DNA of 63,932 nucleotides, the filler included, from Neolecta irregularis DAH-3 (lineage: Eukaryota): NCBI GenBank assembly GCA_001929475.1. It is 11 parts of 11 records of this genome, joined end to end, with 100 filler letters (N's around TTAATTAATTAA, not from the genome) between each part and the next. Parts side by side here need not be neighbours in the genome. Positions count along the whole stretch, not along the records: positions 1 to 20,822 come from LXFE01003523.1; positions 20,923 to 27,038 come from LXFE01000385.1; positions 27,139 to 28,640 come from LXFE01003530.1; positions 28,741 to 31,026 come from LXFE01003534.1; positions 31,127 to 33,068 come from LXFE01003538.1; positions 33,169 to 45,920 come from LXFE01003554.1; positions 46,021 to 51,784 come from LXFE01000386.1; 4 more parts are not named here. One strand, written 5' to 3'. Both the position numbers and the translations under genes were made by a program. Positions 6,159 through 58,702 of this stretch are shown here, one piece after another (position 1 is the stretch's first letter; each line of letters starts with the position of its first letter). The notes under the pieces are model-generated. The model was given only the letters and a program-made list of their open reading frames with translations. It ran no database searches and was not told where the DNA came from.

Positions 6159-9100
6159 CTAAATGACAGCAATGTGATTGGAAGGATTGAAACTTCCAAT
6201 ATGCAGTGGAACTCGCCATGGTAAATTCTTCAACTTTTCAATCATGGTATTCTGCCGCGCCCTCAAGCATTCAAAGTTTTCCTGTTGTCGAAGATGCTTG
6301 TACTGCGGTAGTTTCTTTATTGATTTCCAGCCAGTACCAGGTTGAGGAGTCGACTTAAGATCAACCAATGTGCACGACGTCGTGAATTTTAATATATCCT
6401 ATGAGATTAGGCGAAATCATGACGAAGAAATCATACATCTACCAAGTGCCGACCATTTTCCAAGGTCTGTTGCCGAAGGGTTACAACTTCCTCGTCATAT
6501 TTTTTCAGTAATGGCTCTTGCAGCCATTGGAGATCTTCAGTGATACGTAAATGGTAATTATGCTCCTGCAAAAACCGGATAGCTTCTTTAAGGGTATGTA
6601 TCTCCTTCAAGAGAGCCTTGGAATCGTAAATCAAGCTTCTTCGATTAAGTGTTGAATCTTTATTATTGGTATCAAATTCGGAGGGCTTCGCTTCGCTGGC
6701 CATCTTCTTCCATTTTGCTGCCTCTTCTTCGAGATTTTGTATCTCAGAATTGAGGTTCTCGATCATCTCCTCATATTGTTTCGCTCGAGTAGCTGAATTA
6801 GCCAGATCGGCCTCAAGTTGAGTGAGTTGCTCAAATTGCTTTTTGGCGCCTCCCATTCGACTTTTAAGAAGGTCAATTTGGACCGAAGATTCTTCAAGGT
6901 ATTTATCCTGTAAAATGTCACTCTCCAAATGGCCATTGAAAAGCAAACCTTCAGTCGTAGCTGCATTATCAGCTCCTTGACTTCAGCTTGAGTTCTCGAG
7001 AGTTTCTCAGTTGTGTCGATATCTGTCACTTTGGCGTCTTTGACGTTTCTAGCCCGAAAAATCCAGGGGGCTACTTCTACTCCATCGACTTCACCGATTA
7101 GCCAAATTTTGGAGAAACCACATACATTCATGTGTTCTGTTGAGATCGTGAGCAATTGCATTCAGTTCGACCAATGATTCTGTCGTTATAACGACCCACT
7201 TGTCGAAGGCCAATAGTGGATTGCTTTGCTTATCAAGTGGTAGTTCCTTGCTACAATCCTGTATCGAACATTGTAAATCATAGAAACTGAACGATTTCCC
7301 CTCTTCGCGGGCATTCGCAAGGTATCGAACAACGGCTTTGCCGATCTATATTAGTCTGGAATATAAAATGAAATACCTCACGAGAAACAAAAGCAAGTTG
7401 GCGGCAACTACTGGCCGCGCTTTGAAATTTTTGGATTGACTCGGGTTCTAAGGCAAGCGATCGCACCTTGAGATCGTCGACGACTCGACCAAGTTTGCTC
7501 ATCAAGTCAGTTTAAGGTAAAAGGAAATATTTCATACGTTGCCTGTACTCGTGAAGTTTTAGCATGTGCTACCAGAGAAACCCAATGTTCAAGTTGCTCT
7601 TCACATTCCTCCACTTTTTCAGTACGCTTTCTAAGTTGCCGTTCACATAACTCAAGCGTGAAAGTAACGCTATCCATGTGGCCTTGCAAAATAGAGCATA
7701 ATGCCGTGTATTCTTCTGGCAAATCGATGGCCAATTGCATAACGTGATTTTCAGCCAAATGAGTCAAAATCGCCAGGGATCTTGGAAGTTATTCAAAGGA
7801 TATGTAAAAGAGCTTACCGACCCAATTCTTCGACAGCATGGGTTTCCTTGAAGTCATCTGTCTTTAGTTGATTGAGAAAACGACTTAATGTCTTTTCGAT
7901 AGGCTCAACTTCGTACTGAATCCCAGCACACGATGTAAACTCCTGTGCCGAGCAATTGCTGAAATGCACCACAAACCTCTTTGAAGTTCCTGAAATCCAT
8001 ACAAGTTTGTCGCATATGTCGGTTAAGGCAATTAAATCTTCGTCAGTTTTGCCAGGTGTTTCAGAAGAGTGTCGTTCGTGAAGGAAAGTCAACAGAAGAT
8101 TGGATTTGAATGAAATTCGCTTTAGGCGAAGGAGACCTTCAATCGACACTCGCTCATCCTCAAAGGAGCTAGGGAGGAACATCTGTGGGTATCAACCGGG
8201 TTTCGATCATACAAAAGATATGCCTGTATCATGGAAAGCTGATCCACGGCTTCAAGAGCCTCTAACTTGCGCATTTCGAGTTCAATGGCTTTAACTTGCG
8301 CCTTGTTGGAAGATTTCTGCAACTTTGAATTGAGTTCCATCATAGCTCGTGTCCGACTGCTGAGATCTTTTGTCTCTGTCTCGCTCGACTTTTGAGCCTG
8401 ACGAAGCTCTTCGATATCACTATCATTTAACAAGGCGGTCTCGATGGGAACAAAGTACCTCTGCAAAGACGCAACTAATTCTCTGAATTTTCCAATCATG
8501 TTTTCATAATCCAAGTTCATCTCCTCTGACTGTCGTATTCGTTTGGCTTGCTCCCGAATCAGTATATCCCGATGATCAAGTTCTTCAATCAATTGCTTCT
8601 CTGCTTCAACGTGATTAATATCTAGCTCATCGTTCACTTCTCGGAGGGCTTCAAGATCTTCGATATTAAGCTTCATCTCTTCAATCTTTTCGCTCATGGA
8701 CATGTTCTTTTCAGTGAGTTCTTCCAACATCTCCTCGGCACCGAGAGCAGCATCCAGTTGTACTCGAAGTTCATCGACTGTTCCCTCTAGCCGCTCAATC
8801 TTCTCACTTGCGCTAGAATAGCGGTCTATTTGTCAGCATAATATTGGTCTGATACTTGCCTCTAAACCCCTGAAGCTCAGAAACTTCCATTTCAAATTCT
8901 TTCAGATCTTCTTTGAGTTTATTCTCGTTAGCAGACGTAACGTCACGCAAACTATCTTGTCAATCAACTCAAGATGTTCAACGTACCGCATCAAAGCTTC
9001 CCGTAATCTCTCATTCTGCTTTTCCAACTGTAGCCACCCGGCTGAAGTTCTCTCTTCCGGAGGAACGTCTCTATTCATTTCACCATTCTCAGCTTTCAAG

Positions 9101-10342
9101 ATATCGTTTTCAATAGAAAGCTCCTCCATCCTCTCCTTTAAAGCAGCAAGTTCCATTTGAAGAACTTCCGAACGCTCCTCGGCCATTTCTCGATCCAATG
9201 TAGCCATTTCGACAACTTCGGTGTTTTCAGTGATTTTGGACTCGAGAACAGCCTTCATTTCTTCGGCAGAGTCAAGAGATTTACGAAGATCTTTTATTTC
9301 TGATTGCATTGATGCCATTTTAGCTAGTTATTAGATTCAAGTGAGATATCGCTGGTATTTACTTTGCAGTTTTGATCGGATACTTTCCCAGCTTTCACGA
9401 TCTGTCGCAGCCTGCTCTAGCTCTTTGATTTTCTTCCGGTCGTCCGCACGCTTCTGTTCAAAAATCCGGAGCTTGGCAGCAAGTTCTTCAACTTCCTTGG
9501 ACGTCTATATCTATCAGACTTGTCAAATTTGTGCCAAGTACGCTCGAAGGGTTGCGGTTCGCCACTGGACTGGTACTCCTGGTAATTGCAAGAGAGCTAG
9601 CCCTTTTGTTTTGGCCTACATTTTCAAAGGTTATCTCCTTTACTAACTCGTGGGATGCAACATCAACAGACGAAACGGATACATGCTCGACTTTAGGCCC
9701 ACTGATCGATAGAAGACCACGTAGACTTGATTGTGATCGACCAATGGATGACTGCGAGGATGCTGATCGTGTCTGTCCGGATTGGTTCAAGACAGCAGAA
9801 GTGTTGACTGACGCTGGAAGAGAAGCCCTCTGAACCTGACGAATTGGTGATGAAGTTTGATATTGAGATGTCTGCAGAATCGACTTTCTCGGAGACGGAC
9901 TGCGTAATCCGGAAGGCGTAGGACTTCGCAACTGACTGGTGCTCGTGTTCAATCTAGGCACAGGCATTGATCGAGGAACTGCCTGGTTTATTTAGAACCA
10001 TGATCACATTGAAACACCTACTTGTGGAGGTTTCATTTGACCCTCTGGCTGCAATGGCTGCTCGAGATTTAAGTCTGCAGCTTGAACTCCCTGGTCGATG
10101 ATTTTCGGAAGAGTGGGTCTCACAAAAATCCCATGGTTATGACGACATTCAAAATATTTCTTGTCTCCGACAAAGCCATTATTCTTTCCAGATGGAGTGT
10201 CGAGTTCGATTCCAACCCATTTACCAGCAGAAAAATCCGTTGTTCCGATGAATCGTACCGTGCCGATTGCGCCATTGACCAATACTCTGGTTCCGATATC
10301 TAATGACAGCTGTCGTTTCGACAGTGTTGACGATCTTTCCAT
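6159..10342 (-). CDS. NIP100: Dynactin p150(Glued) subunit (Nip100/Ssm4/RO-3), about 11 exons
   Basis: N-terminal CAP-Gly domain (GTVRFIGTTDFSAGKWVGIELDTPSGKNNG...GIFVRP), S/P-rich linker, coiled coils with EMATLDREMAEER, QLEKQNERLREALMRLRD and QLDAALGAEEMLEELTEKN. The exact 3' end is uncertain. Confidence 0.93.
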
Positions 10343-10525
10343 GGCTATTTACGATAAGCAAAAGAGCAATTGGACCTTTCGACCATTGAGCACAGATGAA
10401 GGTTAGATTCAGGAGTGTCTTAAGCCGAGTCTCACGTGGATCGATCACAACCAAGGTCCCTTCGCTTTTCGGGTTACATAAACAAATGGTATGTATCTCA
10501 AAGAGACAGCGAATACGACGTGCTA

Positions 10526-11620
10526 TCACCTAAGGGACAGAAAATCTACCAACTTGTACCACTCCTTAAATTCATCGTCTGCCTCTGTCAAAGTTTCATT
10601 TACAAACTTGAGCGCATCGCGAAATATATCGGCTTGTATCTTTACCAGCGATTGAGCTTCGCAACACCTGATCACATCAAGCAAGCCGGTTTGCGTGTTA
10701 CGAAACACTCTGTCAGCTCGCTTCAGTCTCGACATGCAGTTATTTACACGGCTGAACTGGACATGAAGAATGGCTCTGATTAATCTGACTGACTTAAATT
10801 CTGGATCATCGTTTCCAGTTAGAATGCCGGGGTTCTCAAAAGACGGAAGATATCGTAAATGTGATGATACTCGATAAATCAATATCGTGGCCTTTCGCAT
10901 CTCTAGTCTTATTCTGATTGCAATCTTTCTGAGTTCAAAGCCCTCCTTCGCCTCGAAAATCAATTCCATCACTATGGATTCCGCCATCCGAAACTTGTCG
11001 TTAATCGCTGCAAAATTCCCTGCGGTATCTCGTTGTTGGGAAAACACATGAGAGTCCTTCAAATACGTCCTCAACCTATACAACCCAGCTATTTCTTCTT
11101 GAATTTCTTCGAACTCATCGACTACTTCTTTCGCAGCATATAGTGCTTCGTCCACGAGCCTTCGATATGCTCTCACAGAGGGTGATTGTCCTTCAACTGC
11201 ATCGGAAAACATCTTATCGGCGAATTCTATCATATCTTGAATTTGTAATATTCTCCGCAAGATACTCTCGGTACGGTTGTCAACGTCTTCGATTATTCCA
11301 ATTGCTTCTTCGAGAGGCGTGTTGCCATACAATTCTACTAGTTCATTGATACCAGAATCAGGCTCATCACTTTCATAACTACACTCAAAGAAATTGACTG
11401 ATGTTTCTGTGTTAGATGAGAGTGGTGGAGTCAGGTCGATAAGCGAAAATTCTTTGATCATTGAATGGCATTTAAACCGCGAAACCCCCTCATGATAGCG
11501 ATAATGTCTGTCAATGGGAAGCACTTGATTCATGAACAAGTTGACAAAAATAACCCAAGCCAGTATCATAATCCTGCCAAGATTATCCACTAGTTCTGTT
11601 ATATTCAGATCCCACCACAT
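10526..11620 (-). CDS. Hypothetical intronless alpha-helical protein with an N-terminal hydrophobic segment
   Basis: Uninterrupted 364-codon ORF from ATG 11620. It has the hydrophobic stretch IMILAWVIFVNLFM and charged heptad-like helices. No recognisable family. Confidence 0.65.
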   Translation of the reverse strand: MWWDLNITELVDNLGRIMILAWVIFVNLFMNQVLPIDRHYRYHEGVSRFKCHSMIKEFSLIDLTPPLSSNTETSVNFFECSYESDEPDSGINELVELYGNTPLEEAIGIIEDVDNRTESILRRILQIQDMIEFADKMFSDAVEGQSPSVRAYRRLVDEALYAAKEVVDEFEEIQEEIAGLYRLRTYLKDSHVFSQQRDTAGNFAAINDKFRMAESIVMELIFEAKEGFELRKIAIRIRLEMRKATILIYRVSSHLRYLPSFENPGILTGNDDPEFKSVRLIRAILHVQFSRVNNCMSRLKRADRVFRNTQTGLLDVIRCCEAQSLVKIQADIFRDALKFVNETLTEADDEFKEWYKLVDFLSLR

Positions 11621-11811
11621 CACTTGTTCTAGAGGGAAGAATATCAGTACAAGAACTTGTTTGCAAAATATTCAATAATATGAATAGCATACATATTGGC
11701 CTTCAGGTTATATATCATAATACAAACCTACCTACACAATACCAGCACACAATAATGAGAATGCAATACATTTCAAAAAATCATGTAATTGGATTTGCAT
11801 GCCATGCATCC

Positions 11812-12192
11812 TCAATAACCCAACTGTATCTGACGACAGTATGCTGAACAGATGTGTTCCATATCACTTTGAGACAAACTTTGAGGAAGTGGCTGTTGTA
11901 TGTATCCTGGTGACTGCGCTTGCTGGGGTATTGCTTGATACATGGGAGTCTGGCCGTAGGAAGCCGCATATTGCGCTTGTTGATTGGGGTACTGCTCTTG
12001 CCCATAGTGGTTGTTAGGGTATTGTTCTTGTGCATGCTGTAGGTTGGAGTATTGTTGGTTGGAGTAATGGTTGGGGTACTGTTCTTGTCCAGGCTGGACC
12101 GCCGCGTAAGGGTATTGCCCCTGGCCGTAAGAATTTGGGGCATAAGTCGCTATGGCAGAAATGACCGCGGTGGATAGGAGCAGGTATTTCAT
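11812..12192 (-). CDS. Small secreted Q/Y/P-rich repeat protein (126 aa)
   Basis: Signal-peptide-like start MKYLLLSTAVISAIA, three QEQYPN repeats and a C-terminal CxxxC. Confidence 0.7.
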   Translation of the reverse strand: MKYLLLSTAVISAIATYAPNSYGQGQYPYAAVQPGQEQYPNHYSNQQYSNLQHAQEQYPNNHYGQEQYPNQQAQYAASYGQTPMYQAIPQQAQSPGYIQQPLPQSLSQSDMEHICSAYCRQIQLGY

Positions 12193-12911
12193 CCGTGGGA
12201 AGGACATATTTCCCTGACAAAAGATGTTCGAGCGACGAAGAGGCAGCTCTTGGGGTTTTACTAATTTCAAGTGTCACCGGAAAAGTTTCAAGTATAAGAT
12301 AGAGCGCCACTAGTGGATGACGTACGATAGACGGTTTGGATTGGGCGAAGTTTTTCGGCAGGCTCCGGGCCATCTCTCTGCCTTTTTCAGCGGAGAATGG
12401 CGCTGCTCCATGAAAGACTATAGCTGCAAGAAAAGAAGTATATTTCTTGCTATATATGTTGCTCGACGAGAGAAGTCAAAGCAGAGCAGTTGCATTCTCG
12501 CATGCATAAATCGATAAGCTCGTACACGTATCTCCGTTCAGGGATGCTCGCAGTAACCAAATATAGTAAAGAGGAGCGTTGCAGTGTGTAGGTTTGTTTC
12601 AAGCGTAGGCTCTGGAATCTGCTATGCGTTTAACGCGTGTCTCGGGTCAGTGATCACGCTGTTGCCTTGTGAGATATTTGATATTGATTAGCGAAGGTCC
12701 TCCTGACCTGCAAGAATGATATTTCTGTCGATATTCCGGGAATGACCCTTATTAGATGTTGTAAGCTCCATAACAGCTCCTTCATATGCAGTGCTGCAGC
12801 GGATATGAGCAAAAGAAAAATTTCCAGAAAAACTGCACAGAAAGAACGCAGAAGAGCAAGTGATAGATTCCAAAATGACTCCAGCTCTTTACAACCAACG
12901 CTTCCCACTAG

Positions 12912-14025
12912 CTAGGTAAGGTCGACTTCGCCATCGATATTGTTTTTAATTTTGAGAAGAATCGATGTCTTCCATTTATCAAGCTTGCTCAAAGAATCGT
13001 AATCGAAGAGTATATTGGAAAAGATTTCTTCGTCGCCGCTCTCAATAGCTCCTAGCAGGTCCTGTATGTAAGCATTATAAATAGCTACTTTGAACACTAC
13101 AAGCAACAAACGACATTCTCGGGTGGCCGTGAAGGTTGGATCCAGTTCTTGATATTTCTCCAGAGCGGCATGAGCTGATACGCGATCCTATGGGCGTTAA
13201 CAGAACTATATATATTGCCTATCCGTACGTTGGAAGCCAAGTGGCATAAACCAGCCTTTAGAAAATAATCCTTGGTGCTGTATTTAGTGAGGTTATTATT
13301 AACACTTTCTTTGCCGACTTTCTCAAAATTTTCAATAGCTTTTGGATAATCTTCTTGTGTGGCAGCAAGTTCGGCAACTTTAAGATAGGCTTTATTCGCA
13401 AGACTAGTGGATTGTCAGAAAACATTTAGTCAAAAATAGATAACTCACGCCTCTGCTTGGTCATTGGAAAACCAATTTCCTGCGACTTCATATGACTGCA
13501 CTGCTCGAGACAGGTCATTCAAATCATTCTCGTAAACTTCAGCTGCATTCATTTTATACTGAGCAGCACGACGGAAACCACCTCGTTGGGTAAAGATAAC
13601 GACGGCTTGTTCAAGAACTCGAATGGCATCTAAATCAGGTCAGCTAATTTACATCCTGAAGGGTTGATGGCACCTTCGGGGTCCGTTTTCCGATAACACT
13701 TGAAGGCATCGATAAGGGTATTAGCTGCATCATCTTTCTCGCCCGATTTGAGTTGCATATTCGTCGCTTTCTCTAATGCTTGTCCAGCTTCTCGGCCTGA
13801 ATTTGTGAGGGACGTCTGTCATGCTATGCATACCCAAGTTTGCCAGTCTGAATCCATTCGCGGCATCCTTGTATAACTCGGCAGCATCTTCATACTTATT
13901 TGAACCTCCGCCGAACAGAGACCATCCACCATCAGCGCTCGCAGCCTTTTTATCGGCCTTCAAATCAGTTATTCGACGCCGGACGGGTTAGATACCTTGG
14001 CTAGGAGCTCATGAGGGTTTCCCAT
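12912..14025 (-). CDS. SEC17: Alpha-SNAP (vesicle fusion protein Sec17), 6 exons
   Basis: KADKKA...GWSLFGGGSNKYEDAAELYKDAANGFRLA, RGGFRRAAQYKM and YDSLSKLDKWKTSILLKIKN; five canonical GT-AG introns traced. Confidence 0.95.
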
Positions 14026-14225
14026 GTTGAGAAGAACTGATGTTGAAGGTCACCTTAAAGGATTCTTGCTCAACATCACTCCTCGATGATCCGTGTGTAT
14101 ATGCGTAAACTTCTATAAGATGTTGTATGTATAGAATATAGAAGATCTATGTATTTATGGATTGCATCTGGTTTTTTCCATATGGCTCAAGATATTACTA
14201 CCCAAAACAACTCTCGAACTCTTCG

Positions 14226-14648
14226 ATGCTTCGGTCGCCCTTTCATACGTCTCGTCGATTTAATTCAATTATGGGAACACCTTTGTGGTCCGTAAAATCC
14301 CTTCTACCACCGCATGGCGGGCATCCAGTAGTCCAGAAAGACGAACTTCTCAACGTCCTCAAACTTTCAGCATTACCTCTTCCGAAATCTCCTGAGCACG
14401 ACTTAAAACTACTCCAGGACCTGTCAAATCAGCTTCATTTCGTAAGACATATTCAAAGCGTGGACACTGAAGACGTGGAACCGCTAGTCTGTGTGCGAGA
14501 TGAGGATCAAAAGTCTGTTGATTACGACGAGGCTATGGGACAGCTGGATTTGCCTATCGAAGCACAACACTGGGAAATTTTGAAGCTATCGAAGAGAAAG
14601 AATGGGCGTTTTTTGATGGTTGAGGGTGGGCTAGGTGACCAAAAGTGA
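14226..14648 (+). CDS. Mitochondrial glutamyl-tRNA(Gln) amidotransferase small subunit (GatC/GatF/Gta3-like)
   Basis: Presequence-like MLRSPFHTSRRF followed by WSVKSLLP, LKLSALP and DLSNQLHFVRHIQSVDTEDVEPL. An alternative ATG exists at 14157. Confidence 0.75.
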   Translation: MLRSPFHTSRRFNSIMGTPLWSVKSLLPPHGGHPVVQKDELLNVLKLSALPLPKSPEHDLKLLQDLSNQLHFVRHIQSVDTEDVEPLVCVRDEDQKSVDYDEAMGQLDLPIEAQHWEILKLSKRKNGRFLMVEGGLGDQK

Positions 14649-20470: not shown

Positions 20471-20662
20471 ATGTTTCAACTGAAAATAATCATCGAAAAT
20501 CCATCGTCATCCTCTGAGATTTTCACAAGAGATATCGCTGAACCCACAGACGAAGGAATTAGTTCGCGGAAAGAGTATTTGGGGACGTTGCTGGAGAAAG
20601 TAAATGAATTGAGAGATCAAGTCAACTCTTCATTAACGACACAAATGTCGGAATCGAAACAG
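20471..20662 (+). CDS. GON7: EKC/KEOPS complex subunit Gon7/Pcc2-like, truncated by an assembly gap
   Basis: KEYLGTLLEKVNELRDQVNSSLTTQM matches the Gon7 core pattern YL..L...V..LQD.IN..LT..M. Confidence 0.65.
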
Positions 20663-20673
20663 NNNNNNNNNNC

Positions 20674-20822
20674 AATGATGAAGCTACTTTCTGCATGCTG
20701 GACAAATGTACGAACGGAGATTTTCTCATCTTACACTTAGCCAAATCGGCATTCGGAAATTTGACTAATACTGTGGGAGCCAGTCAGATCTATTCTTCCC
20801 AAGAAGGCCCTTCGTTGCCTCC
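20674..20822 (+). repeat. Near-identical copy of positions 68-216 (MMS22 exon) appended after a 10-N gap
   Basis: 149-nt match with three substitutions. Confidence 0.9.
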
Positions 20823-20922
20823 NNNNNNNNNNNNNNNNNNNNNNNNNNNNNNNNNNNNNNNNNNNNTTAATTAATTAANNNNNNNNNNNNNNNNNNNNNN
20901 NNNNNNNNNNNNNNNNNNNNNN
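20823..20922. other. Artificial contig spacer N44-TTAATTAATTAA-N44 (also at 27039, 28641, 31027, 33069, 45921, 51785, 54547, 61499, 62717)
   Basis: Ten identical 100-nt spacers, each carrying stop codons in all six frames. Confidence 0.99.
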
Positions 20923-20933
20923 TTTTTTAACAG

Positions 20934-21743: not shown

Positions 21744-21831
21744 TCCGTCGTAGTACAGTGGCTAGTATACTTCGCTCTCATACCAAGGCTGTTGTCCCGA
21801 AGAGACCCGGGTTCAATTCCCGGCGACGGAA
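21744..21831 (+). tRNA. tRNA-Glu(CTC) with a 16-nt intron (21781-21796)
   Basis: Acceptor stem TCCGTCG/CGACGGA, anticodon stem CTTCG/CGAAG, CTC at 21777-21779, intron after base 37, T-arm CCGGG-TTCAATT-CCCGG. Confidence 0.95.
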
Positions 21832-31126: not shown

Positions 31127-31752
31127 GAGACATGCTGAAGCAAAGGTATTGGGATCCTTGAGATTGATAGCAAGACCCATGACGTAGTGGCTGTGACCTT
31201 CAAAGGTCATTGTACATTTCCAATCAAGGTCCCAGTTCCATAGTTTGATAGTCATATCATCTGAGCCGGACAGGACAAAGGGAAGTGTTGGGTGAACGGC
31301 CACGCAGCGAATGTAGTCAGGATGAGCTTCGAATTGGGCGACTTTGTCATGGGTATTGTAATTGTAAACGCGGATATGGTAATCATCGCTCCCACTAACG
31401 AACCAGGATTTCCGAGCGATAAATTTCCCAGCGCGAACAGGCACATCTAGTGTTGATTAGCACTGAACGAAAATATATGAGTGGAAACTCGTGGACGAAA
31501 TTCCGGAGGATGGGATGCACCTGTAACTTCGAATTGCTTGACTAGAGCACTTGTTTCATAATTCCAAATATACACGTGGCCACTATACAGAGTAGCCAGT
31601 ATCCAAGGCTCTGTTGGATGGATGTCGATGGCTTTTACGCGGTCGGATCTTGCAAGGAGACACCTCTAGGGATAGTCAGCTCTGAATGAACGAGTGAGTC
31701 CAAGCCATGACGGCTAAGTTGAACTGAGAAATACCTTTATGCGCAGTGTCAT
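31127..31752 (-). CDS. SEC27: Coatomer beta' subunit, 5' part only
   Basis: [45 protein letters not shown] and FEGHSHYVM...[10 protein letters not shown]; two introns. Confidence 0.96.
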
Positions 31753-33501: not shown

Positions 33502-35545
33502 ATGCATTTCGCAGAATCAGCCCCGACGATTCAAAAGACTGGAGATATCCCGAACCATTGTATTTCTCTATATGATATTTGCACATATTAAAGGAGTAGA
33601 TCCATTTCATAATAGTATCGGTCGAAAAATTGGCTCGTTTGAGATTCCCTCTTACACTTCCCCAATCTTTCAAGTTATACTCGTAATAATTCGAGGATTG
33701 TTGTGCAATGTTTTAATTCATAGGTTGGTTTTGTATGGTTCGCTAAATTTCGTCGGTCTGTGTTCACTCCGCAGCTTCCTTGGTCCAGGAATGTTCAATG
33801 CACTATCTGGGCTTGGAGGAGATATGCCATGAACGATTGATAAATCTAATCTTCAGGCGGTCAAATCAACGGGAAAGCAGCAGATAATGCCAACGTCGGT
33901 ATGCAATCAAGCCATTTAAATATCCTACTGTTATAGCCTTGTATACGACATTCGCAGTCACTGGATATTTTGGTGGGGTATAGCTGCCCAACGTCGACTT
34001 GTTGATATGAAGCAACTAGGCTATCTGTAATTATCTGGGCCCTCGAAAAACACTGGCGTTCGGCACAACAGGTTATTGTTTATATACCGCCTCATTTCTA
34101 GCTTATAACCACATGTATACTACCCTATCGGAAAGCCGCTGATCAGACAGTCAAAGTAATGTTTTCGTGATCGTCGCTGGGGCATTCTTGGGAGTCGCGG
34201 CTGGATGCTTGTGGAGCGCCCAAGGACTCGTTCTACTATCCTATCCCTCGGAGCAGAACAAGGGCAGATACATTGGTGTGGCTTTATTCTTGAATTAATG
34301 ACTAACGCTTAGGGTATTTTTGGTATCAGAAACCATTATGACGTCATTTGTTTACTATTGCAGGGCAATTTTCAATACTGGAGCTTTCATTGGCTCAGCC
34401 ATTCCTTTAGGGCAGAATTTCCATGCGAAGGAGATGAAAAAGGTTAATGACGGAAGTTACATTATTATTCTTGTTCTTATGACTCTTGGATTCGTTTTAG
34501 CTTTGTTTTTAGCTCCCCCCGAGAAAGTTATACGAAATGATGGCACGAGAGTTACGAAAGTCTACTTTCCAAGTGTTAGGTTTGGCTCTTAATAAATTCT
34601 TATTGATCACAGACATGAACTGATGGGACTTGTGAATACCATGCGCTACGAACCATTCATATTCAGCTTATTTCCGTTCTTTTGGGCGAGTAATTGGTTC
34701 TACACTTACCAATTCAACGATATGAATGCTTACTACTTCAACATTCGGACTCGAGCTCTCAACAATCTCATGTATGTTCGAATGATTTGACCTCTGACTC
34801 GAGAAGGTATTGGTTTATGCAAATATTTGGAGCACTCACTTTTGGATCATTTCTTGACGTTCAAAGTTTATCAAGAAGATCGAGAGGAGCTGCCGGATGG
34901 GTTATCTTGTTTGTCCTAGTCAATGTTATCTGGGGCGGTGGTGTTCCTTTTTTACAAACGACTGCCCGAAAAATGCCGAGCCCAAATATGGATTTATATG
35001 ATGATGGATATGCTGCGAAATTATGGTTATATATGGTATGAACTGAACAAGATCAATCTCAAACCAACCATTAGTTTTTCGGATTTCTAGACGCAATGTG
35101 GCAAACTTTTGCCTATTGGGTAAATCTTGCCCTGCTTCATTATGTCAATACTGGATAGATGATGGGAGCTCTCAGTAACAATCCACAGAAGCTAGCCTAC
35201 TATTCTGGTTTCTACAAAGGCCAAATGCTTTTCATTGTATTGACTAATTATTTAGGTATACAGTCTGCCGGTGCAGCGGTGGTTTGGAGACTTGATGGGA
35301 TCGGTGTATCATTCGCCGCTTTGTACTACAGCTCATGGGGACTGTGTGCCGGCTCTATGCTCCTCACGGCACTGGTCTTAGCTTTTAAGATCACGGAAAC
35401 AAATATAACCCAAGATGATTATCTGACAGAAGAAACAAACAATGCTCAGTCTTTGACAGTAGAATGTCCTCTTGGCACCGTTAAAGAACAATCCCCTCAG
35501 ACAAAGGTCATGGAGCAATTTGATCAGAATACGAAAGCTTTTTAG
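33502..35545 (+). CDS. UNC-93-like MFS transporter, many short exons
   Basis: VGFVCFLGPGMFNALSGLGGGG, LWSAQG...YPSEQNKGRYI, FWASNWFYTYQFN, FNIRTRALNN and GFYKGIQSAGAAV. The start is tentative. Confidence 0.9.
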
Positions 35546-37642: not shown

Positions 37643-38368
37643 ATGGTAGCCAACAACTCGGAAGAATTACAAAGAGTATGGGGAATGGTAGAAGAGCTCT
37701 GCCAGCAGCTTTCTCTCAATAGAGAATACTCGGCACAGCTCGCTCGCCAGGCCAACAATTTAAAAGTAAGACAACCCCCGGATTTAAACGGGCCTGACTT
37801 GTATGTAGGCTCAAATTGGTAACGGCGTGGGACAAAGCCTAGTGTCTGCAGGTCTATCGCCTGGTTTGTTATTCTCGCGAGGAATCTATTGATCAACCTA
37901 GAGGCCTTTGAATCGGAAGTGGTGCAGAAGAATACACAGCTACTCGAAACTAACAAATCTCTACGCGAAGAAAATGAAGAATTGACGAAACTCATCGCAC
38001 ACTACGAAAGGGGCATGGAAAATGTTGTCGCAAAAATGAGAAATTACGCTGCAAGGCCATTCCGCAAAATGTATGTTGATGTCTAGCACGAACAAACCAC
38101 GAATTCAGTCAGGATTCATAAGGAATATTCTGCTCAACTCGAGAGAGAGCAAGCATGCAATGAACAATTACGAAAGCTCGCTCTAGACCGCGAAGAACAA
38201 CTAAAACGTGTATCTGCGCTCATTAGAGAAGCATACAAAGCTGAGACAGAGCTTGAACCTGACATTCTCTCTGAGACACTGAGTATCGAGAACCGAGGCT
38301 TGAAAGAAATGCTAGGTATTTTTGATGCAGAGGATGAGATTGAAAGTTGCCACAATGCTAGTTCATGA
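37643..38368 (+). CDS. Small coiled-coil protein, SIKE/Far3/Csc4-like STRIPAK subunit candidate, 4 exons
   Basis: ELQRVWGMVEELCQQLSLNR...LARQA, LREENEELTKLIAHYERGMENVVAKMRNYA and LSIENRGLKEML. Confidence 0.6.
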
Positions 38369-39041
38369 GGGGCATTCAGGGGTGTTTGGAGTTTGTACAT
38401 ACAACGGGCATAACTTGTATATCGTTTTTCCAGGATTAAGGGAGTGTTTCATTGATATTATTGTTTTTGATTACTGATAATATATATACTCTGAATGTGT
38501 ATTCCCTGGTGGGCTTGAAATACGTAGGTTATAATGTAGCATGTTAGACGAGCTAAAGACTATGCTGACTGTCTAAGAATGTCTCAGTCAGCTCTCAAGA
38601 AACCGAGATATGGAGTTAAAGCTAGCGAGAGTCGATGAAGGTGGATACAGCTAAAGAACATGTTGATGAGGTTGAGCAAGAGGATTGGAAAGGAAGAAAG
38701 AATTGAGTAGTTATCAAAAGGATGGACGAGACTCGCGGTCGCATTCCCAGCAGAAAGCCTTGTTTTGACGCGACGGCGTATAAAGGAACACCGGTCCGTC
38801 CCTGACAATCGTCCATCGCTTTGCTCACCAACCACCATCTCCCACTCGGCTCCCCTCCATCGACTGACGGCTTTCTTCGTATTTTGCCCTTCTTTAGTTT
38901 ATTCCCGCTTGTCGTGATATCTTCCTTTTGCTTCGTCCCTGGAGGTCCTACAGAAGCTCGTTTTATCGTTTCATTAACTAATCGACTCTTTTATATCAAC
39001 AACCCGTTGTCGCGGTCCCGTTCAATAGAACAATTCTCAGC

Positions 39042-41730: not shown

Positions 41731-44311
41731 ATGGTCATGCGGAAGGATCCACAGCAACACCGCACTTCCAACAGAGTCTGCTTCGATCCATTAGGTCCTC
41801 AAGACGCAGACGAGGAACAGATCCTCGAAGGAGCTAGTTCTCATGTTCCCCAGATGACTCAACAAGGTCGTCCACTACCCATCCTTGTGACGTCTGATTC
41901 TACTCCACCAGGTGGAAATAATTCCCACAAGTTCTACATACCACAGGATGAGTCATACGATAATGAAGAAATTTTGATAAAACAATCTACAACAAAGGAG
42001 ACTTTTCTCTCCTCTGATTTATTCTCAGAAAGTTCACCAGAAATCTCTCGTCCACCTAGTGCCAATGGATTGGTTTCAGCAAGACCTTTCTCATTTACCG
42101 AAATCAACGACCGATTTGCTCTTCCTCAGAAGATCGTAACTCATTCGGGGTTTGGAAGACTGGAATCAAATCCTCCCTCTTTCGACATCAGAGCTACACA
42201 AAGCACGGTTGCCATTCCAGGCCCACCTATCGCCCCGTCTCACGGAATTGTTAGCCCTCAAGAGCCTAGTGCTAGCGAAGCATACAAACTAGTCAGGGCA
42301 CATACAATCAAACAAACACCCTCGGGGCTTAATCGACGGACAGGCAGCACACCGGATATCAGAAGTTCTGCGGCCAATGCTACCCTTCTTCAGCAAAATA
42401 AAGGCGGAGTGCTTGGTCAGTTGATGCAATTGCATGCATCTCCTCGTGTAGCATTTATATTGACTCTAGTAGATATGGCAATCAGGCCCTTTCAAACGAA
42501 TTCTCTCAACCCACTGCTCGGGAGAAATGGTACAAAGGTTCCAAAAGTGCAACTAGTTCGACAACATCGATACAAGCGATGCTTGCCCCGACGGGTTCTC
42601 GTTCGGAGACTTCTTCGCCTGTTAATGGAATGTCGGCCTCACATCGAGCAACATGTTCTGGCCCTGGTGATATTTCTCCGTTTGGATTTGCGAAACGACA
42701 AAGCGGTGGAATCGTTAAAGCTGCCCAAAGTGCCGCTCATAAAGTAAAAATGGGATGGATCCACCCCAAGGAAACTGAGATTACATTCAATGTTGCAGAT
42801 ATTCTGACGCGGCAGAGGTTCATTCTTAAGGCATGTTGACCTGAAAAGATAATAATAATCTCCAGTTTGCAGAGGCGCTGATCATCTTTGGAGCTCCCAC
42901 TCATCGGATTGAAGATTATCTTTCCACGATATCTCACTGCCTAATGATTGAGAGTACCATTCCTCTTGCAAAGATACTGACAACACAGGTCAGTTTGTGT
43001 ATCTCCCCGGCACTATTGTAATCTCATTCGACGATTCAGTAACACATACCTCGCATGTCAAGATTGTCCGCGCTCCCGCAGGAATCGATCTCAGCAAACT
43101 GGGGATAACACATGACATTTACAAAGAAGTCAAAATGGACCAAATTAGCGCTGGTGACGGTCTTGGACGGATCACTGAACTTATCAATGGTCCCCCTCTA
43201 TACCGCACTTGGGTTAAAATTGTTGCATACGGATTTGCTAGTGCTTTTGTTGGACCATTTGCATTTGGGACCAGGTTTATAGATATGCCCATATGTTTCT
43301 GTTTGGGGGTTATGATTGGAATCTTGCAAACCTTTGTCGCTTCCCGATTTATCAGTTTCGTATGTATCCTTTTGATGAATCTTTTGATTTTCCAGAGTAA
43401 AATATTCGAGGTTATAGCGCCTATGCTTACTGCATTTTTGGCTCGGGCATTTGGTTCGATTCAGCCGCAGGGTTTATTTTGCTATTCCGGGATAGCCCAG
43501 TCTGCTATTGTTTTTGTTTTACCTGGTTATATTCTTGTTTGCGGTGCTCTGGAGCTCCAAGCGAAGAATCTTGTCGCCGGCTCTGTTCGCATGTTTCAAG
43601 CAATAATGTATTCACGTATGAGCCTGCTTCGTTCCGGCTACTTATTCTAGTCTTTTTAGCATTCGGAACTACTCTTGGTTCGGCGCTGTATGCACTTGTA
43701 GATAAAAACGCTACAAACCAGCCTACATGTAACGGTTCTGTATCGGATTACCACCGGCTTTGGATTGTTCCAATATTTTCGTTATGTCTCGTCGTTGTTT
43801 TTCAAGCGCACTACCGGCAAGCTCCGGCAATGATTATAATCGCCTCTATCGGCTACTTGGTGAATTATTCGGCTTCTAGGTATACCTCTCAAGTTTCGCT
43901 TGTCAATGCTTTGAGGTTGCCCCCCTTTTATCATGTCTGATGGTACAGCTCGTTTGTTATTGCAACGATTGGAAATCTTTATTCTCGAATTGGCCACGGT
44001 CTTGCCTTTACTGCCGTTCTTCCTGCAGTTTTAGTTCTCGTTCCATCTGGTCTTGCAGCACAAGGCGGTCTTCTCTCGGGTCTTCATGAAGCTCAATCGA
44101 TTGTCAAGAATAGTACGACTTTAACGGTGTCGGATTCCATTTTTAGCATTAGTGATACCAATATGCTTTATTTTGTTTTTCAAATGATTAAAGTTAGTAT
44201 CGGTATTACAGTTGGGTTGTTCTTGTCTGCTGTTTTTATCTATCCGGTATGTCATTACGAGTATGATCTTATTCCTAGATTCCATGGAAACGGTCGATAT
44301 GGAATTTTTAG
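41731..44311 (+). CDS. PRM10: Pheromone-regulated membrane protein 10 (DUF1212/ThrE-family exporter)
   Basis: RQRFILK/FAEALIIFGAPTHRIEDY, YLPGTIVISFDD, LPGYILVCGALELQAKNLVAGSVRM, VLVPSGLA and IGITVGLF. Confidence 0.9.
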
Positions 44312-44410
44312 GTAGAGATGGAGGGGTGGTCCACCAACAGGTAGAGGTTGGATTAGGGAAGATTGGTAGTTGTTATTTCACTAGATGTTTCAGGACTGAT
44401 CATTCATATC

Positions 44411-45837
44411 CTAGGTTTTCATGAGAACCTGTTCTAGGTATCCATTACCCTCTTCATTGTAACCAACGCAACAATGCCACTTTACGAGAGAGTTTTCAGC
44501 AATAATAGTTTTTTTCTCGTCGTGTGATAATCTTGAGAATTCGAGAGCATTTCTTTTCAAGATCTGTTCGGAAACACCCCAGAATGCGGACAGGATAGCG
44601 TGATTTCCTGCGGAATCTACTAGTTTCCAATTTCCCTGCAACATCAAAACGCTATCGTCAAGGATCTTTTCGATATGGCAAAACTGACATTGAAGGGATG
44701 TTAATGGTTGTTTGCAAATAGAGTCTTGGCGTCAACTGGATCACCAGGATTTTATACGGTGCCAGACAGCGTCCAGGTTATCAAAGCCGACAACAGTACA
44801 TGTGGAGTGTCCTGATTTTGTGATTGGCTGTGGATTCCAGAGGTATGGCGAGAAAAGCTGGCATGAGGATGTCGACACTTGAATTAGTAGGATAAACAGC
44901 CACGTACCTGAATAGATTTTACAAGCGGGCGTTGACAAGTAGCGATCGTTTATACCTGTGTCGTTTATAGGGGATAACCCTGTGTCGTTTAAAGGGGATA
45001 ACCCTGTGTCGTTTATAGGGGATAACCCTGTGATCAAGATTAAACAAGGCGGGTGAATGGAGACCAGGATATTCTGTTGAATAGATAGATGACGTGTTCC
45101 ATCCTGTGTAGAAAGCACGATATTAACGAAATCTTGATTACGTGAGATTTCCCGTACGCGACCGATGAGACAACTTTGTGATTGAATCTGGGGTAATCTA
45201 TTCTGGGGTAATCTAATAGCTGCAAATGTGGAGAAATTCCAATCGTTTGCGCCCGACCAGTTTGGTACGACCAGCGATTCGCCAATGTTGAGTAAACTGG
45301 AGGAGTGATCGGGAAAGAAAACGCGCCATTCTTTTCCGTCGATGCTGAAATTTACAGAGTGTGTGTCGAGGGAGAGGACGACCATTTGTGTTCCGTTTAG
45401 AAGTTCGTCTTGTGCTAGGATGGGAAATAGGAATTGTGTAGGAAGCAACAGTCTGCCTGTGCGGCCTATTTGTTTTGTCATTGTGAACCGGAGTGTGTGA
45501 TTTTTGAGAAATGTGGGATCTTGCGATTGGAGTAGGAGTAGGGTGTGTCCGTCTGACAGGACGAGTCGCGAACGATCGGGGGAGACCAGAGTACATGAGA
45601 GCTGATAAATATGGCGAAACGAGTGTTTATAGAGTGGCTTGAGTAACTGCGGGTCAACGTGGGGCGTAAGAGCGAGACCTCTGATTCTAATTCGGAGAGA
45701 ATGATTGCTTTTGTGAGACCCAAGGGATATTGATGCATGAGTTTGACGAGATGCAGGGCAACCCAATTTGCCGAGCAGACCAAGGAGCAAGCGGAAAGGG
45801 CAGCTAGTAAATTTGTGGAAACTGAAGTGATGTCCAT
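44411..45837 (-). CDS. Multi-OB-fold protein with a zinc ribbon, S. pombe Cdc24 OB-domain-like, 4 exons
   Basis: Spliced model: N-terminal W..LHLVKLMHQYPLGLTKAIILSEL, intron 45647-45678, OB-like strands (LIGRVREI), HSIC..CQFC, and an RPA70C-like tail WKLVDSAG...SEQILKRNALEFSRLSHDEK. Confidence 0.6.
44955..45032. repeat. In-frame 24-nt tandem repeat x3 (TGLSPIND)
   Basis: CCTGTGTCGTTTATAGGGGATAAC repeated three times with one substitution. Confidence 0.95.
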
Positions 45838-45855
45838 GAATTGAATGCGGTAATT

Positions 45856-45920
45856 GATATATGAGTGATATATGAGTGATATGAGTGATATATGAGTGAT
45901 ATATGAGTGATATATGAGTG
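45856..45920. repeat. 11-nt tandem repeat (TGATATATGAG)n running into the contig end
   Basis: About 6 units, one of them 2 nt shorter. Confidence 0.95.
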
Positions 45921-46099
45921 NNNNNNNNNNNNNNNNNNNNNNNNNNNNNNNNNNNNNNNNNNNNTTAATTAATTAANNNNNNNNNNNNNNNNNNNNNNNN
46001 NNNNNNNNNNNNNNNNNNNNGGAGGCGGGACGGCCATGCGGCGGTGTCTGGCGGCAGTGGGAGGGCCGTGCGGGGGCAGCTCGGCCCGCCTGCGTTGCC

Positions 46100-46105
46100 T
46101 ATAAA
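46100..46105 (+). promoter_or_regulatory. Candidate TATA box of the xylose reductase gene
   Basis: TATAAA inside GC-rich sequence, 138 nt upstream of the ATG. Confidence 0.5.
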
Positions 46106-46127
46106 GCTTGTCTGTTGCCTGTATTGT

Positions 46128-46237
46128 CGTCTATCTCATCCTCGCCGTCTATCTCATCCTCGCCGTCTATCAGCCGTCTATCAGCCGTCTATCAGCCGTC
46201 TATCAGCCGTCTATCAGCCGTCTATCAGCCGTCTATC
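46128..46237 (+). repeat. Tandem array: 18-mer x2 plus CGTCTATCAGC x6, abutting the start codon
   Basis: Read directly; the last partial unit CGTCTATC runs into ATG 46238. Confidence 0.95.
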
Positions 46238-47301
46238 ATGTCTGTCACTCTCGCGCCCTCTGGCCAGAAAATGCCTCTGGTACGCCCCTCCCGCGCTGCG
46301 CTGACCCCAGGTCGGCTTTGGTCTCTGGAAGATCGACACCCGCTCCTGCGCCGACCAGGTCTACGCCGCCCTCAAGACCGGCTACCGCCTCCTCGACGGC
46401 GCCTGCGACTATGGAAACGAAAAAGAGGCCGGCATCGGCATCAGGCGCGCCATCGACCACCGCATCGTCGCCAGAGCAGACATCTTTCTCACCAGCAAGC
46501 TCTGGAACACCTTCCACAACCCGTACCCGGCCCCCGCCAGCTGCCCCCCGCTGACTCCAGCAATGTCGTCAAGACTATTGCAAAGAGGCAGCTCGCAGAC
46601 TACGGCCTCGAGTACTTTGACCTCTTCCTCATCCACTTCCCCATCGCCCTGAAATACGTCGATCCCCAAGACCGCTACCCGCCAGGCTTTTACGCCGACG
46701 GCAAAAGCACTATCGAATACGAAAACATCCCAATCCAGGACACCTGGAAGGTGCCCGCCTCTCCCAATCCTCGCTGACCCCGCAGGCCATGGAAGACCTC
46801 GTCGACTGCGGCATCGCTAGAAATATCGGAATCTCAAACTTTCAATCAAGCCTAATCCTCGATTTGCTTCGCTACGCCCGTATTCGGCCCGCTGTCCTCC
46901 AGATAGAACATCACCCCTACCTAGTCCAGCAACCCCTCCTCGACCTCTGCGCTCAGGAAAATATCGCAGTCACCGCATACTCTTCATTCGGCCCCCAATC
47001 CTTTCTTGAACTGAAAATGAACAAGGCCGAGCAAGTCGTCTCCCTGCTCCAGCACGACACAATCTCGTCCATCGCCAGAAAACTAAACAAGACAAATGCC
47101 CAGGTCCTGCTTGCCTGGTCGACCCTCCGTCACATAGCCGTCATTCCAAAAAGCAATAAACAGGCCCGCCTTGAAGAGAATTTAAATTGTTTGGACTTGC
47201 ACATTGACAGCGAGGATATGAAGGCCATTACCGCTTTGGACAAGGGTTTGCGTTTCAACGATCCCCACAATTATGGAATTCCTATCACTATATTTGCATA
47301 G
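46238..47301 (+). CDS. GRE3: NAD(P)H-dependent D-xylose/aldose reductase (AKR2B type), 4 exons
   Basis: [69 protein letters not shown] and LRFNDP. Confidence 0.93.
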
Positions 47302-48012
47302 CTTGTTTTCTGTCATCGTTATCCTATATCCATCTTCATAAGGTCATTATCATTCAATCGTCATCTCATTCAATCGTCATCTCTACGCCACAAGACTGCC
47401 CATACATGACGACAAACCACGTCATTACAAGTATATAACCCCCCCTCCTCGTATCCCACTCTACAAAATGACCTCGTACAAAGTATCTTCTCTTCCCTTC
47501 TCGTCTAATAAATAGAAAGGAGATCACGTTGAATACAGACCAATCGGAGGAGACAACCAGAACGTTTCTCATTCAACTGGCATCATCGAAAAAGTAACCG
47601 GAGATGCACAGAATGCTAAATTCGCAATAAAGGTTGCTTGTCTTGTATCCTACTGATCTTTAGAATGACAATACCGGGAAAATCACTCATTACGAGGAAA
47701 TGAATATCGTCAAGAAAATTGATTCTTAGTTGGTAATGGAGATCAATATTGTCAAGAAATTGTTTCGTTTGATGTGTAGTGAGATGAATAAAATGTGCGT
47801 GTATTGAAATGTCCGCGCGAAACGTCAAATCCGCGACTAACCCCTCTTCCCGCCTGTCTGTTTGGCCTGCCTGCCTTGCCCACCTGCCTGTCTGTTCCTT
47901 GCCAATATTTACGTAAACATAAAGAATCATATACATAATATAATAATTTATATTGCTTTATATACATCTTAAGCCCAACTTGGCACATCCCCAACAGTGC
48001 AAATACATTGTT

Positions 48013-48075
48013 GGTCTAGTCAATATAGACGGTCTAGACCGACCGTCGATTTGGTCCAGTAGATTGAGAACACTG
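48013..48075 (-). mobile_element. hAT-like TIR end (relic), related to 26850
   Basis: The reverse complement starts CAGTGTTCTCAATCTACTGGACCAAATCGACGG and carries repeated TAGACC motifs. Confidence 0.5.
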
Positions 48076-48389
48076 CATAGTTCCCCAGGTAAAATGCTTT
48101 AATAGTCTTGTCTGTGAATAGTGTTGCTGGTTCTCTTAGAACGGAAAACAGGCATCTAGGTGGATTAAGTGGAGTGGTGGCGGTGGTTATTCCCTTTACG
48201 TTTCGCGGATTTGACGTTTGGCGCGGAACAAATGTGAGTTGAGATTGATTTTGAATGCGTGTATGAGATGAATATTGACTTTGAATGCGTGTATGAGATG
48301 AATATTGAGATGAATATATATGAAATAACACCATAGTAAACCTGTTATTTCTATTTTTGAGGTTACAAGTCACCTTGTTCCCGACTCCT

Positions 48390-50157
48390 ATGGCATCTTC
48401 GTTCCCATGGATGAACAAGGAAATCGGAGAAGACACAATACAATACTGGCTATATCTTCGACAGTCTACTTCGGAAACGATTACTCGACTACATCAACTC
48501 GAGAAAGAAATAACGCACCAAATATCTTGCTTGACGGATACTCGTATCTGGCAAAAAGAAGAATTTCATCTCGAACTGATTAAAGATTCTGGCATGTGAG
48601 GATATTTTCAAGATCATGTTATTCTGACTACCCTCAGCTGATCGATCTTGTTTATTTGGAACTAGCTGTTTTGGAGATTGTATTCAAGATGAATGGTTCA
48701 TCGTATATTTATTACGCACAATCTCTGAAATCAACAAAGATATTATTATCCGGTAATCAAGTACAACGGAGAGACTAATATACAGAACCACCGATTCAGA
48801 CGGACATTTTCTCCTTATTGAAGCTGCTTTTGAATTACCCAATTGGATCGATCCTGACGTTGCCGATAATAGAGTACTTATCCCCGCCATTCTTGTTAAA
48901 TATTAGCTTTGGATTAATGATGGAAAGCTCTTGTTGATTCCGCCCGCGTATGATAAACAAGAGTCGGCGCTATTATCAAGGGAGGATGCATTAAGTATAC
49001 TTGAAAATGAACCTATTGACAATTTCGTCGTCTCTGAGAAACTGCAAATGGCGGCTTTCAAGGCAATCGAAGGGTACATTTCCTCCCTCAGAGTATACTA
49101 AAAAGATTACCTCGTACCATTGACGAGAATTGTCATCATGCACTCGTGTATCTTCCACGCTCTGTAGCTGCTATTCTGCATCAAGACCGAAAACTTATTT
49201 CACCAGCGGTAGATGCTTTTTATCTACGCGATTCATCGTCTTTAAAGGCATTTTACAAGTTTGTCCAGAATTAATTTTCCTAGGCCTGCGAATCAATGTC
49301 GAGATTCCCCCCAATAGATATAATTGCCACATCCATCGAGTTTACAAAAACCCTGTATGCGCAAGTAAAGGGTCAAATGTTTCATGCACCACCAGTTTAT
49401 CCGCTTCCTCTTTCTACAAATCCAGATTACGCGAAATATGTCACTGGGATGAAAATTGCTTGTGGAATGGAAATGCTTTATGCTCGGGAGGGTACCAGTA
49501 GTCTAATTCGAAAACGTATCGATGAGATGTTCACGGTCCCCACCGACGAAGAAGTCGCAAGGTGGGGAAATAAACAAGATGACGAAAGTTGGCTCTTGGT
49601 TAATTTCAGCGATCTTGATCAACATTCCCATCCCGGAAGAACGCCTAATAGACCCGATGAGATGCAGGATACAGTAAAAGATATGTTGGACAAACTGCAA
49701 GAATTCATGGGCGAAGAAGGAGGATTGGATGGAGTCGAGCTTGATGGGTAATCTTTTTGCTTCCATCTTTAATTATTTAGCGAGAGTGAATCATCCGAAG
49801 AGGATCAAGTCACTTTTGATGATCAAGATTTTCTAACATTGTTGCGTCAGGAATTAGGTTTCCATTTGCATTTTCATATTTATTAAACTTTTAGATGTTC
49901 AACTTCCAAACAATGAACCCTCAGATTCTGAAAGTGACGGGTCAGATCTCGCTGCAATGGACGCGGAATTCGCCGAGTTAATGGTCCAAGATGAAAACGA
50001 ACAGACGGTCGAACAAGATAAATCTGATTACGAAATAGCTACAAACATCTTGGAAAGTTTCAAAGGCCAGGCTGGATTACCTGGCCCTGCAGGAAACATG
50101 CTTTCCAGAATGGGACTTCAGTTACCTCGTGACGACACGGAGGAACCCGATGAATAA
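48390..50157 (+). CDS. ECD: Ecdysoneless/hSGT1 family protein, multi-exon
   Basis: IWQKEEF, FGDCIQDEWFIVYLL, DSDGHFLLIEAA..LPNWIDP, AFYLRD, GMKIACGMEML and NILESFKGQAGLPGPAGNML. Confidence 0.92.
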
Positions 50158-58617: not shown

Positions 58618-58702
58618 ATGTCGTTAGATATATACAACGAATAGATCCTCTAGACCACTTGTCTAGTATCGCGGTTTTGTAACTATCCTCTGTTGACATA
58701 CA

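Follow-up and report, generated by a model that had tools for sequence, protein, structure and literature searches.

The 63,932-nucleotide stretch of DNA analysed here (the window) comes from Neolecta irregularis DAH-3 and joins parts of 11 records of assembly GCA_001929475.1. Five of its genes contain introns that appear to begin with GC instead of GT, and these introns and their host genes are the subject of this report. They are listed below with the basis for each call; posteriors are those of a self-trained gene model described further on.

6159..10342, minus strand: host gene for dynactin p150, 12 introns (2 GC)
8183..8223, minus strand: GC-AG intron of 41 nt in dynactin p150, donor GCATAT (homologue profile; posterior 0.99)
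8826..8859, minus strand: GC-AG intron of 34 nt in dynactin p150, donor GCAAGT (homologue profile; posterior 1.0)
33502..35545, plus strand: host gene for an UNC-93-like transporter, 14 predicted introns (1 AT, 1 GC)
35220..35255, plus strand: GC-AG intron of 36 nt in the UNC-93-like gene, donor GCCAAA (homologue profile; posterior 0.68)
37643..38368, plus strand: host gene for a coiled-coil protein, 3 introns
38051..38086, plus strand: probable GC-AG intron of 36 nt in the coiled-coil gene, donor GCAAGG (model only; posterior 0.98)
41731..44311, plus strand: host gene for a PRM10/ThrE-domain protein, 7 predicted introns
42831..42865, plus strand: GC-AG intron of 35 nt in the PRM10/ThrE gene, donor GCATGT (model only; posterior 0.98)
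48390..50157, plus strand: host gene for ECD/SGT1, 7 introns (2 GC)
48592..48637, plus strand: GC-AG intron of 46 nt in ECD/SGT1, donor GCATGT (posterior 1.0; PF07093 register off by one)
49248..49283, plus strand: GC-AG intron of 36 nt in ECD/SGT1, donor GCATTT (posterior 0.99; PF07093 register exact, 230 then 231)

An earlier note on this DNA had proposed these seven intervals, and each does run from GC to AG on the gene strand with the donor hexamer it gave. The self-trained model recovered all seven unprompted, with posteriors of 0.98–1.0 for six and the lower value for the UNC-93-like gene. The note had further argued that nearby GT options would give the wrong phase, a stop or too short an intron. 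This does not hold at five of the seven sites, where an in-frame, stop-free GT intron of 42–48 nt exists; such alternatives are rejected because of homology or branch-point fit, not phase. Three of the seven calls are based on a homologue profile, two on Pfam register, and two (PRM10 and coiled-coil) mainly on the gene model.

At the three sites with profiles, every frame-preserving, stop-free donor/AG pair nearby, whatever its dinucleotide, was scored against homologues from which the organism's own protein was left out (119 dynactins; 61 of 150 UNC-93 proteins of 380–600 amino acids). Removal of the GC intron gave the top-ranked product at all three. For dynactin 8223–8183 the GC splice scores 180.4 bits against 166.1 for the best GT option, first of 95 candidates; for 8859–8826 it scores 168.7 against 155.5 and is first of 122, with one non-GY candidate close behind at 168.4. 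The UNC-93 intron has the weakest intronic donor and is itself in frame and stop-free, and its removal scores 68.5 bits against 52.2 for a GT splice and 51.6 for retention (first of 80). In ECD no GT intron of up to 50 nt is available at 48592..48637, and the GT alternative at 49248..49283 would remove three residues. The PRM10 intron shifts the frame, could not be replaced by any GT intron of up to 50 nt, and is followed by the exon with which the ThrE domain begins. The coiled-coil site has a GTATGT rival at 38071–38112, and Pfam is uninformative there.

Eighty stretches totalling 800 kb, about 6% of the genome, were taken from long contigs, with listed GC-pattern matches excluded, and the window was added. 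A generalized hidden Markov model (HMM) was self-trained on this material, with GT donors only at first and then with all 16 donor dinucleotides free. It converged on 1679 introns: 1548 GT, 117 GC, 5 AT, 3 GA, 3 GG, and three other donors once each. Leaving out the window, GC-AG introns make up 6.7% (bootstrap 6–8%), and 59 of the 80 stretches hold at least 0.5 GC intron. The share is 7.1% among introns where retention is impossible, and 6.3% (100.5 of 1587) in a joint model in which premature stops, frameshifts and odd acceptors compete. A synthetic all-GT control gave 0 GC introns in 1560, and spiked synthetic controls returned nearly what was put in (62 in 748 found for 63 in 764; 79.4 for 79 true). 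The claim that GC-AG introns are unusually frequent is thus borne out at about 6–7%. The note's "one in ten" describes the window, where 10 GC introns and one AT intron are found among 90 at p≥0.5, but not the wider sample; the window count is high yet compatible with 6.7% (Poisson P about 0.09 by our own arithmetic).

Two further comparisons bear on this share. Among the 56 GC introns compared with Pfam are 13 whose two flanking exons fall on one family, and the junction is in exact register in eight of these and off by one in another. A count that uses no gene model compared motifs at intron distance with the same motifs displaced by 36 nt across the whole genome: AG|GCA occurs 340 times against 152, AG|GTA 740 against 125, and the decoy AG|GRA 355 against 465. 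Scaled by context frequencies, these counts imply about 5–8% GC-AG genome-wide. An initial pair of genome patterns (GCAWGT, 136; GTAWGT, 228) had been uninformative, with reversed controls equally large (90 and 226), and the displaced-distance controls were used in their place. Three paralogous permease genes (L087, L090) also have a GC donor in common, despite intron interiors that are just 74–84% identical. With 4.3 introns per gene (PMC5309816), a share of 6–7% would place a GC-AG intron in roughly a quarter of genes, by our own arithmetic.

The introns concerned are tiny, 97.6% of 1310 confident ones measuring 32–46 nt. The branch motif learned by the model is (C/T)T(A/G)A(C/T), with the branch A mostly 8–11 nt from the intron end (8 being the model's floor) and a median of 28 nt from the donor; small size together with this spacing suggests that the introns are defined by position. 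GT donors are weak, as the earlier note had it, with frequencies of.76 for +3A,.51 for +4T,.40 for +5G,.43 for +6T and.61 for -1G; GTAAGT/GTATGT account for just 9% of donors, and 201 different hexamers are seen in the confident set. Within GT donors -1G and +5G are anti-correlated (odds 0.58), as in the known U5/U6 two-class donor pattern. At acceptor position -3, A occurs in 227 and G in 40 of the 1310.

Several GC donors were described in the note as off consensus. GC donors are indeed weak in absolute terms, yet they match the consensus better than both GT donors and artificial GC ones. Compared with GT donors they more often have +3A (69 of 74 vs 936 of 1236), +5G (46 of 74 vs 493 of 1236) and -2A (47 of 74 vs 571 of 1236). 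The advantage survives a selection control in which real GC donors are set against GT donors converted to GC (-3A.51/.37, -2A.55/.41, +5G.55/.39), so compensation persists. Branch sites of GC introns also score higher (p 0.006), a difference partly open to selection bias.

Laxity reaches past GC donors, to AT, CT, GA and GG, and to the 3′ end too. In the joint model about nine donors are non-GY (0.3 in the control) and about 26 acceptors are non-AG (about 7 in the negative control), led by CG (6.5), GG (4.3) and TG (3.9); as shares, other donors come to about 0.5% and non-AG acceptors to about 1%. We trust the excess of non-AG acceptors less than that of GC donors, the synthetic floor being idealised. 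Nine non-GY donor introns were sent to Pfam, where three were testable: a CT-AG intron in a GTP_EFTU-domain translation GTPase gene (L095, minus strand) and a GA-AG intron in a gene encoding a class I tRNA synthetase (L097 7252–7289, plus strand) are in exact register, and one is off by two. The last, called as AT-AG in an NPR2 gene, is questionable and drops out of the joint model. Of 13 non-AG acceptors sent to Pfam three were testable, one exact, one off by one and one uninformative. Three others, all calls of the joint model, apparently end in TG or GG.

L078 5889–5923, minus strand: GT-TG intron in an ABC transporter gene, with no AG inside the intron
L079 5253–5288, minus strand: GT-TG intron in a telomerase-like gene
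L093 7069–7106, minus strand: GT-GG intron in a ribokinase-like gene

These three look compelling from protein motifs, and the telomerase-like and ribokinase-like names are presumed from such motifs. A-to-I editing, considered as a source of odd ends, could convert AT to GT but would not account for GC, CT or BG ends.

We think it probable that these are ordinary U2-type introns with C at +2 in about 6–7% of cases, because introns of about 37 nt are found mostly by geometry. Near-fixed length, a branch motif close to the 3′ end, low donor information and normal snRNA pairing sequences (below) together lead to the view that the donor is found mostly in this way. Relaxed 5′ recognition in tiny introns, as the note had suggested, fits the length and branch geometry and the weak donors; its alternative of altered snRNA pairing is the part that is not supported. 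The branch-point/3′ complex and U1 would meet across about 37 nt, such that the donor could lie anywhere within some 10 nt. Replacing T by C at +2 would then be cheap, and the change would be kept where the flanks (-3A, -2A, -1G, +3A, +5G) and branch site are above average. The same low stringency may let the other donors and the non-AG acceptors persist. The short branch-to-3′ distance could also have freed the loop of Prp18, decay of which would relax the 3′ end, a step that does not by itself explain GC donors. The usual base-composition explanation of a high GC-AG share fails, since the genome is not G+C-rich (43.6% in the sample).

Several points weigh against this account. The sequence near GC donors shows no shortage of GT dinucleotides (0.30 vs 0.32 per intron), and therefore geometry alone is not the whole rule; the simpler idea that GC is used only where no GT lies nearby is ruled out by the same figures. 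Geometry as the cause of GC tolerance is only proposed here, and the whole case is built from DNA and protein comparison. In a control with donors spiked into real sequence, 101 of 136 were recovered and 18 posterior units of GC fell at unspiked sites, so that misses and false calls partly cancel. The model errs on in-frame, stop-free stretches, as in a false GC call with posterior 0.79 within a continuous Prp8 exon. The remaining four of the 13 Pfam tests are unsupportive (one off by three, three unaligned near the junction), and public gene models take GT alternatives at all three window sites checked, losing conserved residues.

The best candidate for the 3′ part of the laxity is Prp18. The only locus found (L128, G000:C702, 1123–2310, minus strand) holds an intact gene, whose loop reads the same in our own gene model as in the public protein P0272. 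A single-exon homologue search returned only the organism's own protein, and the comparison was made by a metagenome pattern scan in which seven loop residues were fixed, two partly fixed and the rest free. The scan, which is blind to genes with an intron inside the motif, samples taxa unevenly and has no recognised close Neolecta relatives among its matches, found at least 118 loci, of which 97 of those listed are Prp18 by their flanks. Among the matches listed, loop residue W is present in 97 of 97, the last V in 97 of 97, H in 96 of 96, the first V in 94 of 97, T in 92 of 97 and R in 93 of 96; at these columns Neolecta has N, A, K, I, A and K, respectively, which appear there in no listed match. 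Of the 19 free columns with at least 90% conservation, Neolecta departs from the others at eight, each located in the loop or where it joins helix 5, whereas 56 of the 77 other distinct peptides listed deviate at none and the maximum is six. The yeast loop reaches into the active site, and its deletion promotes acceptors altered at -2 and -1; when Prp18 is lost, use of GAG and BG sites rises the most, HAU acceptors are also activated, and the protein is dispensable where the branch point lies near the 3′ site (PMC10711555).

An altered loop would fit the 3′ laxity, and a broader reading extends this to the whole spliceosome: introns of about 37 nt made the loop dispensable, its decay loosened the checks on exon ligation, and genes that are conserved came to rely on GC, AT, CT, GA and GG donors and on CG, GG and TG acceptors placed by branch distance. 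We regard such a naturally low-fidelity spliceosome as possible but lean against it; if it were true, Neolecta would amount to a natural, genome-wide equivalent of the yeast prp18 loop mutant. A common cause, in which weakened second-step checking by the degenerate loop passes imperfect ends on both sides, GC included, seems unlikely to us. Beyond the loop changes themselves, it gains from the lead of CG, GG and TG among non-AG calls, from the A and G counts at -3 given above and from a branch A 8–11 nt away, in view of what Prp18 loss does in yeast (PMC10711555). The yeast data used here concern 3′ sites only, however, and nothing in them connects Prp18 to C at +2; the link to GC donors is a presumed one. 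The Prp18 case also comes from one genome, without phylogenetic contrast, and the loop may have decayed as a companion of the short branch-to-3′ distance and not as a cause.

Donor choice by geometry also has to be set against the view that transcripts are in truth spliced at the GT sites of the public models, or keep these introns, and that GC-AG introns are no commoner here than usual. Feasible GT introns do exist at five of the seven window sites, and the public proteins use them. P0001, the best match of a dynactin exon and with exons identical to the window letter for letter, takes GT introns at 8212–8169 and 8855–8813 in place of 8183..8223 and 8826..8859, and P0121 takes GT at 35208 in the UNC-93-like gene and drops four conserved residues; the published pipeline moreover took transcript input (PMC5309816). 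These models nonetheless cost 13–16 bits plus conserved residues, no GT intron of up to 50 nt could replace 48 of the 74 confident GC introns, and the genome-wide positional excess of AG|GCA needs no gene model. We consider this view improbable, and the public models of this key early-diverging ascomycete wrong at the sites checked.

Bursts of introner-like elements have been proposed for Aureococcus and Micromonas, and a similar burst might have brought in GC-donor introns here. These algae have the highest GC-AG shares (39.6% and 22.2%; PMC3033335). Among the 74 GC introns, however, only three of 2701 pairs are similar at 65% or more, all from the three permease paralogues, terminal inverted repeats of at least 5 nt occur in none, and lengths are those of GT introns. 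A burst is therefore very unlikely, old and fully decayed insertions being the kind that would escape these comparisons.

It is equally improbable that GC donors are read by a minor spliceosome or by a variant of the U1 or U6 snRNA. A single copy each of U1, U6 and U5 was found, and although the U1 body is divergent (43.7 bits, below the Rfam cut-off of 69.5), the U1 5′ end, the U6 ACAGAGA box and U5 loop 1 all match the Rfam consensus and U1C looks ordinary, which gives no support to the note's suggestion of altered U1/U6 pairing. U6atac had no match in the genome in a weak search without a positive control. RTATCCTT occurs at none of the seven sites and ATCCTT in just five confident donors of the sample. 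Base-call errors or pseudogene decay as the source of the odd dinucleotides can be dismissed almost outright despite a fragmented assembly (4542 contigs) and decayed Prp8 copies, as GC is about tenfold more frequent than all other non-GT donors combined, paralogues have a GC donor in common, and simulated errors at 0.3% substitutions gave 50 confident premature stops and four odd introns where the real data have one and 13.

The U1 snRNA (L001 1501–1646) is 146 nt long with a reduced last stem and a canonical 5′ end. The U6 gene (L002 269–417, minus strand) is interrupted by an mRNA-type intron of 50 nt whose GTAAGT donor is perfect, and which is both longer and stronger than the majority of those described here; the S. 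pombe U6 gene likewise contains an intron. Loss of a splicing factor was considered and ruled out for METTL16, SNRNP27, U1C, Luc7, U2AF35, Cwc24, Slu7 and Fyv6: all were found, U1C, METTL16, U2AF35, Cwc24, Slu7 and Fyv6 reading as intact, SNRNP27 being present, and Luc7 present in a gene model without a start. The two regions of Prp8 that were read are close to human, with an RNase H core identical at 102 of 104 positions and the yeast Q1594 position conserved. The intact Prp8 gene is split over short contigs (L113, L118), and several decayed, frameshifted fragment copies are present (L114, L115, L119–L123).

The window has other candidate unusual introns.

33822..33856, plus strand: AT-AG intron of 35 nt in the UNC-93-like gene (homologue profile; posterior 0.77)
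42432..42472, plus strand: candidate GC-AG intron in the PRM10 gene (model only; posterior 0.83)
31666..31705, minus strand: candidate GC-AG intron (model only; posterior 0.77, with a 69-nt GT rival at 0.21)
5968..6005, plus strand: candidate GC-AG intron (model only; posterior 0.66)

Removal of the AT-AG intron scores 33.4 bits against -0.4 for the sole GT option, is first of 59 candidates and restores a conserved glycine run; public model P0121 begins downstream of it. A single-exon homologue search with UNC-93 returned only the organism's own protein. Elsewhere, the same short coding-like stretch lies at 1–295 and 20608–20871, the second copy across the first gap, possibly through scaffolding overlap or local duplication. 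The region 56843–61114 holds two or three paralogues that resemble amino-acid permeases; they are oppositely oriented and have intron positions in common, and one is broken by a gap. At 21744–21831 is an 88-nt tRNA gene, probably intron-containing, whose anticodon ARAGORN left unresolved.

We found no published report of a GC-AG excess in this species, in a search mostly outside the subscription literature; large surveys may hold a value, and one built on the public models would undercount GC-AG introns. The main text of the genome paper is silent on introns and splicing and its supplements do not give GC-AG (PMC5309816), and Neolecta does not appear in the supplement of PMC7072748. Its share is the highest among the intron-rich fungi compared, in a genome that is not G+C-rich. 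Neolecta thus offers a natural test bed for sequence versus geometry in splice-site choice, and its Prp18 loop a specific, swappable candidate for fidelity differences between species and a testable reason for part of the laxity.

The GC-AG introns of Neolecta resemble U2-type GC-AG introns of other fungi in their ends, CURAY-like branch site, flanks stronger than those of GT introns, and ordinary snRNAs. Fungi average 98.7% GT-AG, with 7 GC against 5031 GT introns in S. pombe (0.14%) and 784 against 34983 in C. neoformans (about 2%); that survey has a lone high fungal outlier, Meyerozyma at 6.67% (PMC7072748), a figure that was probably computed from a handful of introns. Curated introns of Ganoderma lingzhi are 1.85% GC-AG, 0.04% GT-GG and 0.02% GT-TG (PMC11590231). 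Neolecta differs in a share about three times that of the best-curated basidiomycetes and about 45 times that of S. pombe, in flanks that are still weak, and in introns of just about 37 nt. In a set of 61 species, shares of 7.7% and above are confined to three algae with G+C-rich genomes, Chlorella (7.7%) joining Aureococcus and Micromonas pusilla (PMC3033335); they share with Neolecta a high proportion and a normal U1 5′ end, but are about 65–70% G+C, and Neolecta lacks shared intron sequence or repeats.

Eurytemora and Oikopleura, with their GA-AG introns, are comparable in that a whole lineage tolerates another base at +2 where AG precedes the dinucleotide and A follows it (PMC7072748), whereas in Neolecta C dominates and not A (about 100 GC vs 3 GA in 1587). 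The CG, GG, TG, GAG and AAG acceptors predicted in Neolecta would match those activated in S. cerevisiae strains without Prp18 or its conserved loop (PMC10711555), which its short branch-to-3′ distance and substituted loop also recall, and the Prp8 Q1594A mutation in S. cerevisiae likewise activates non-YAG acceptors (PMC12707134). These Prp18 and Prp8 mutants offer nothing direct on donors. In Neolecta, moreover, Prp18 is present and Q1594 conserved, and the odd ends are apparently the sole usable sites in intact genes of a wild organism, unlike the cryptic sites that the mutants activate.

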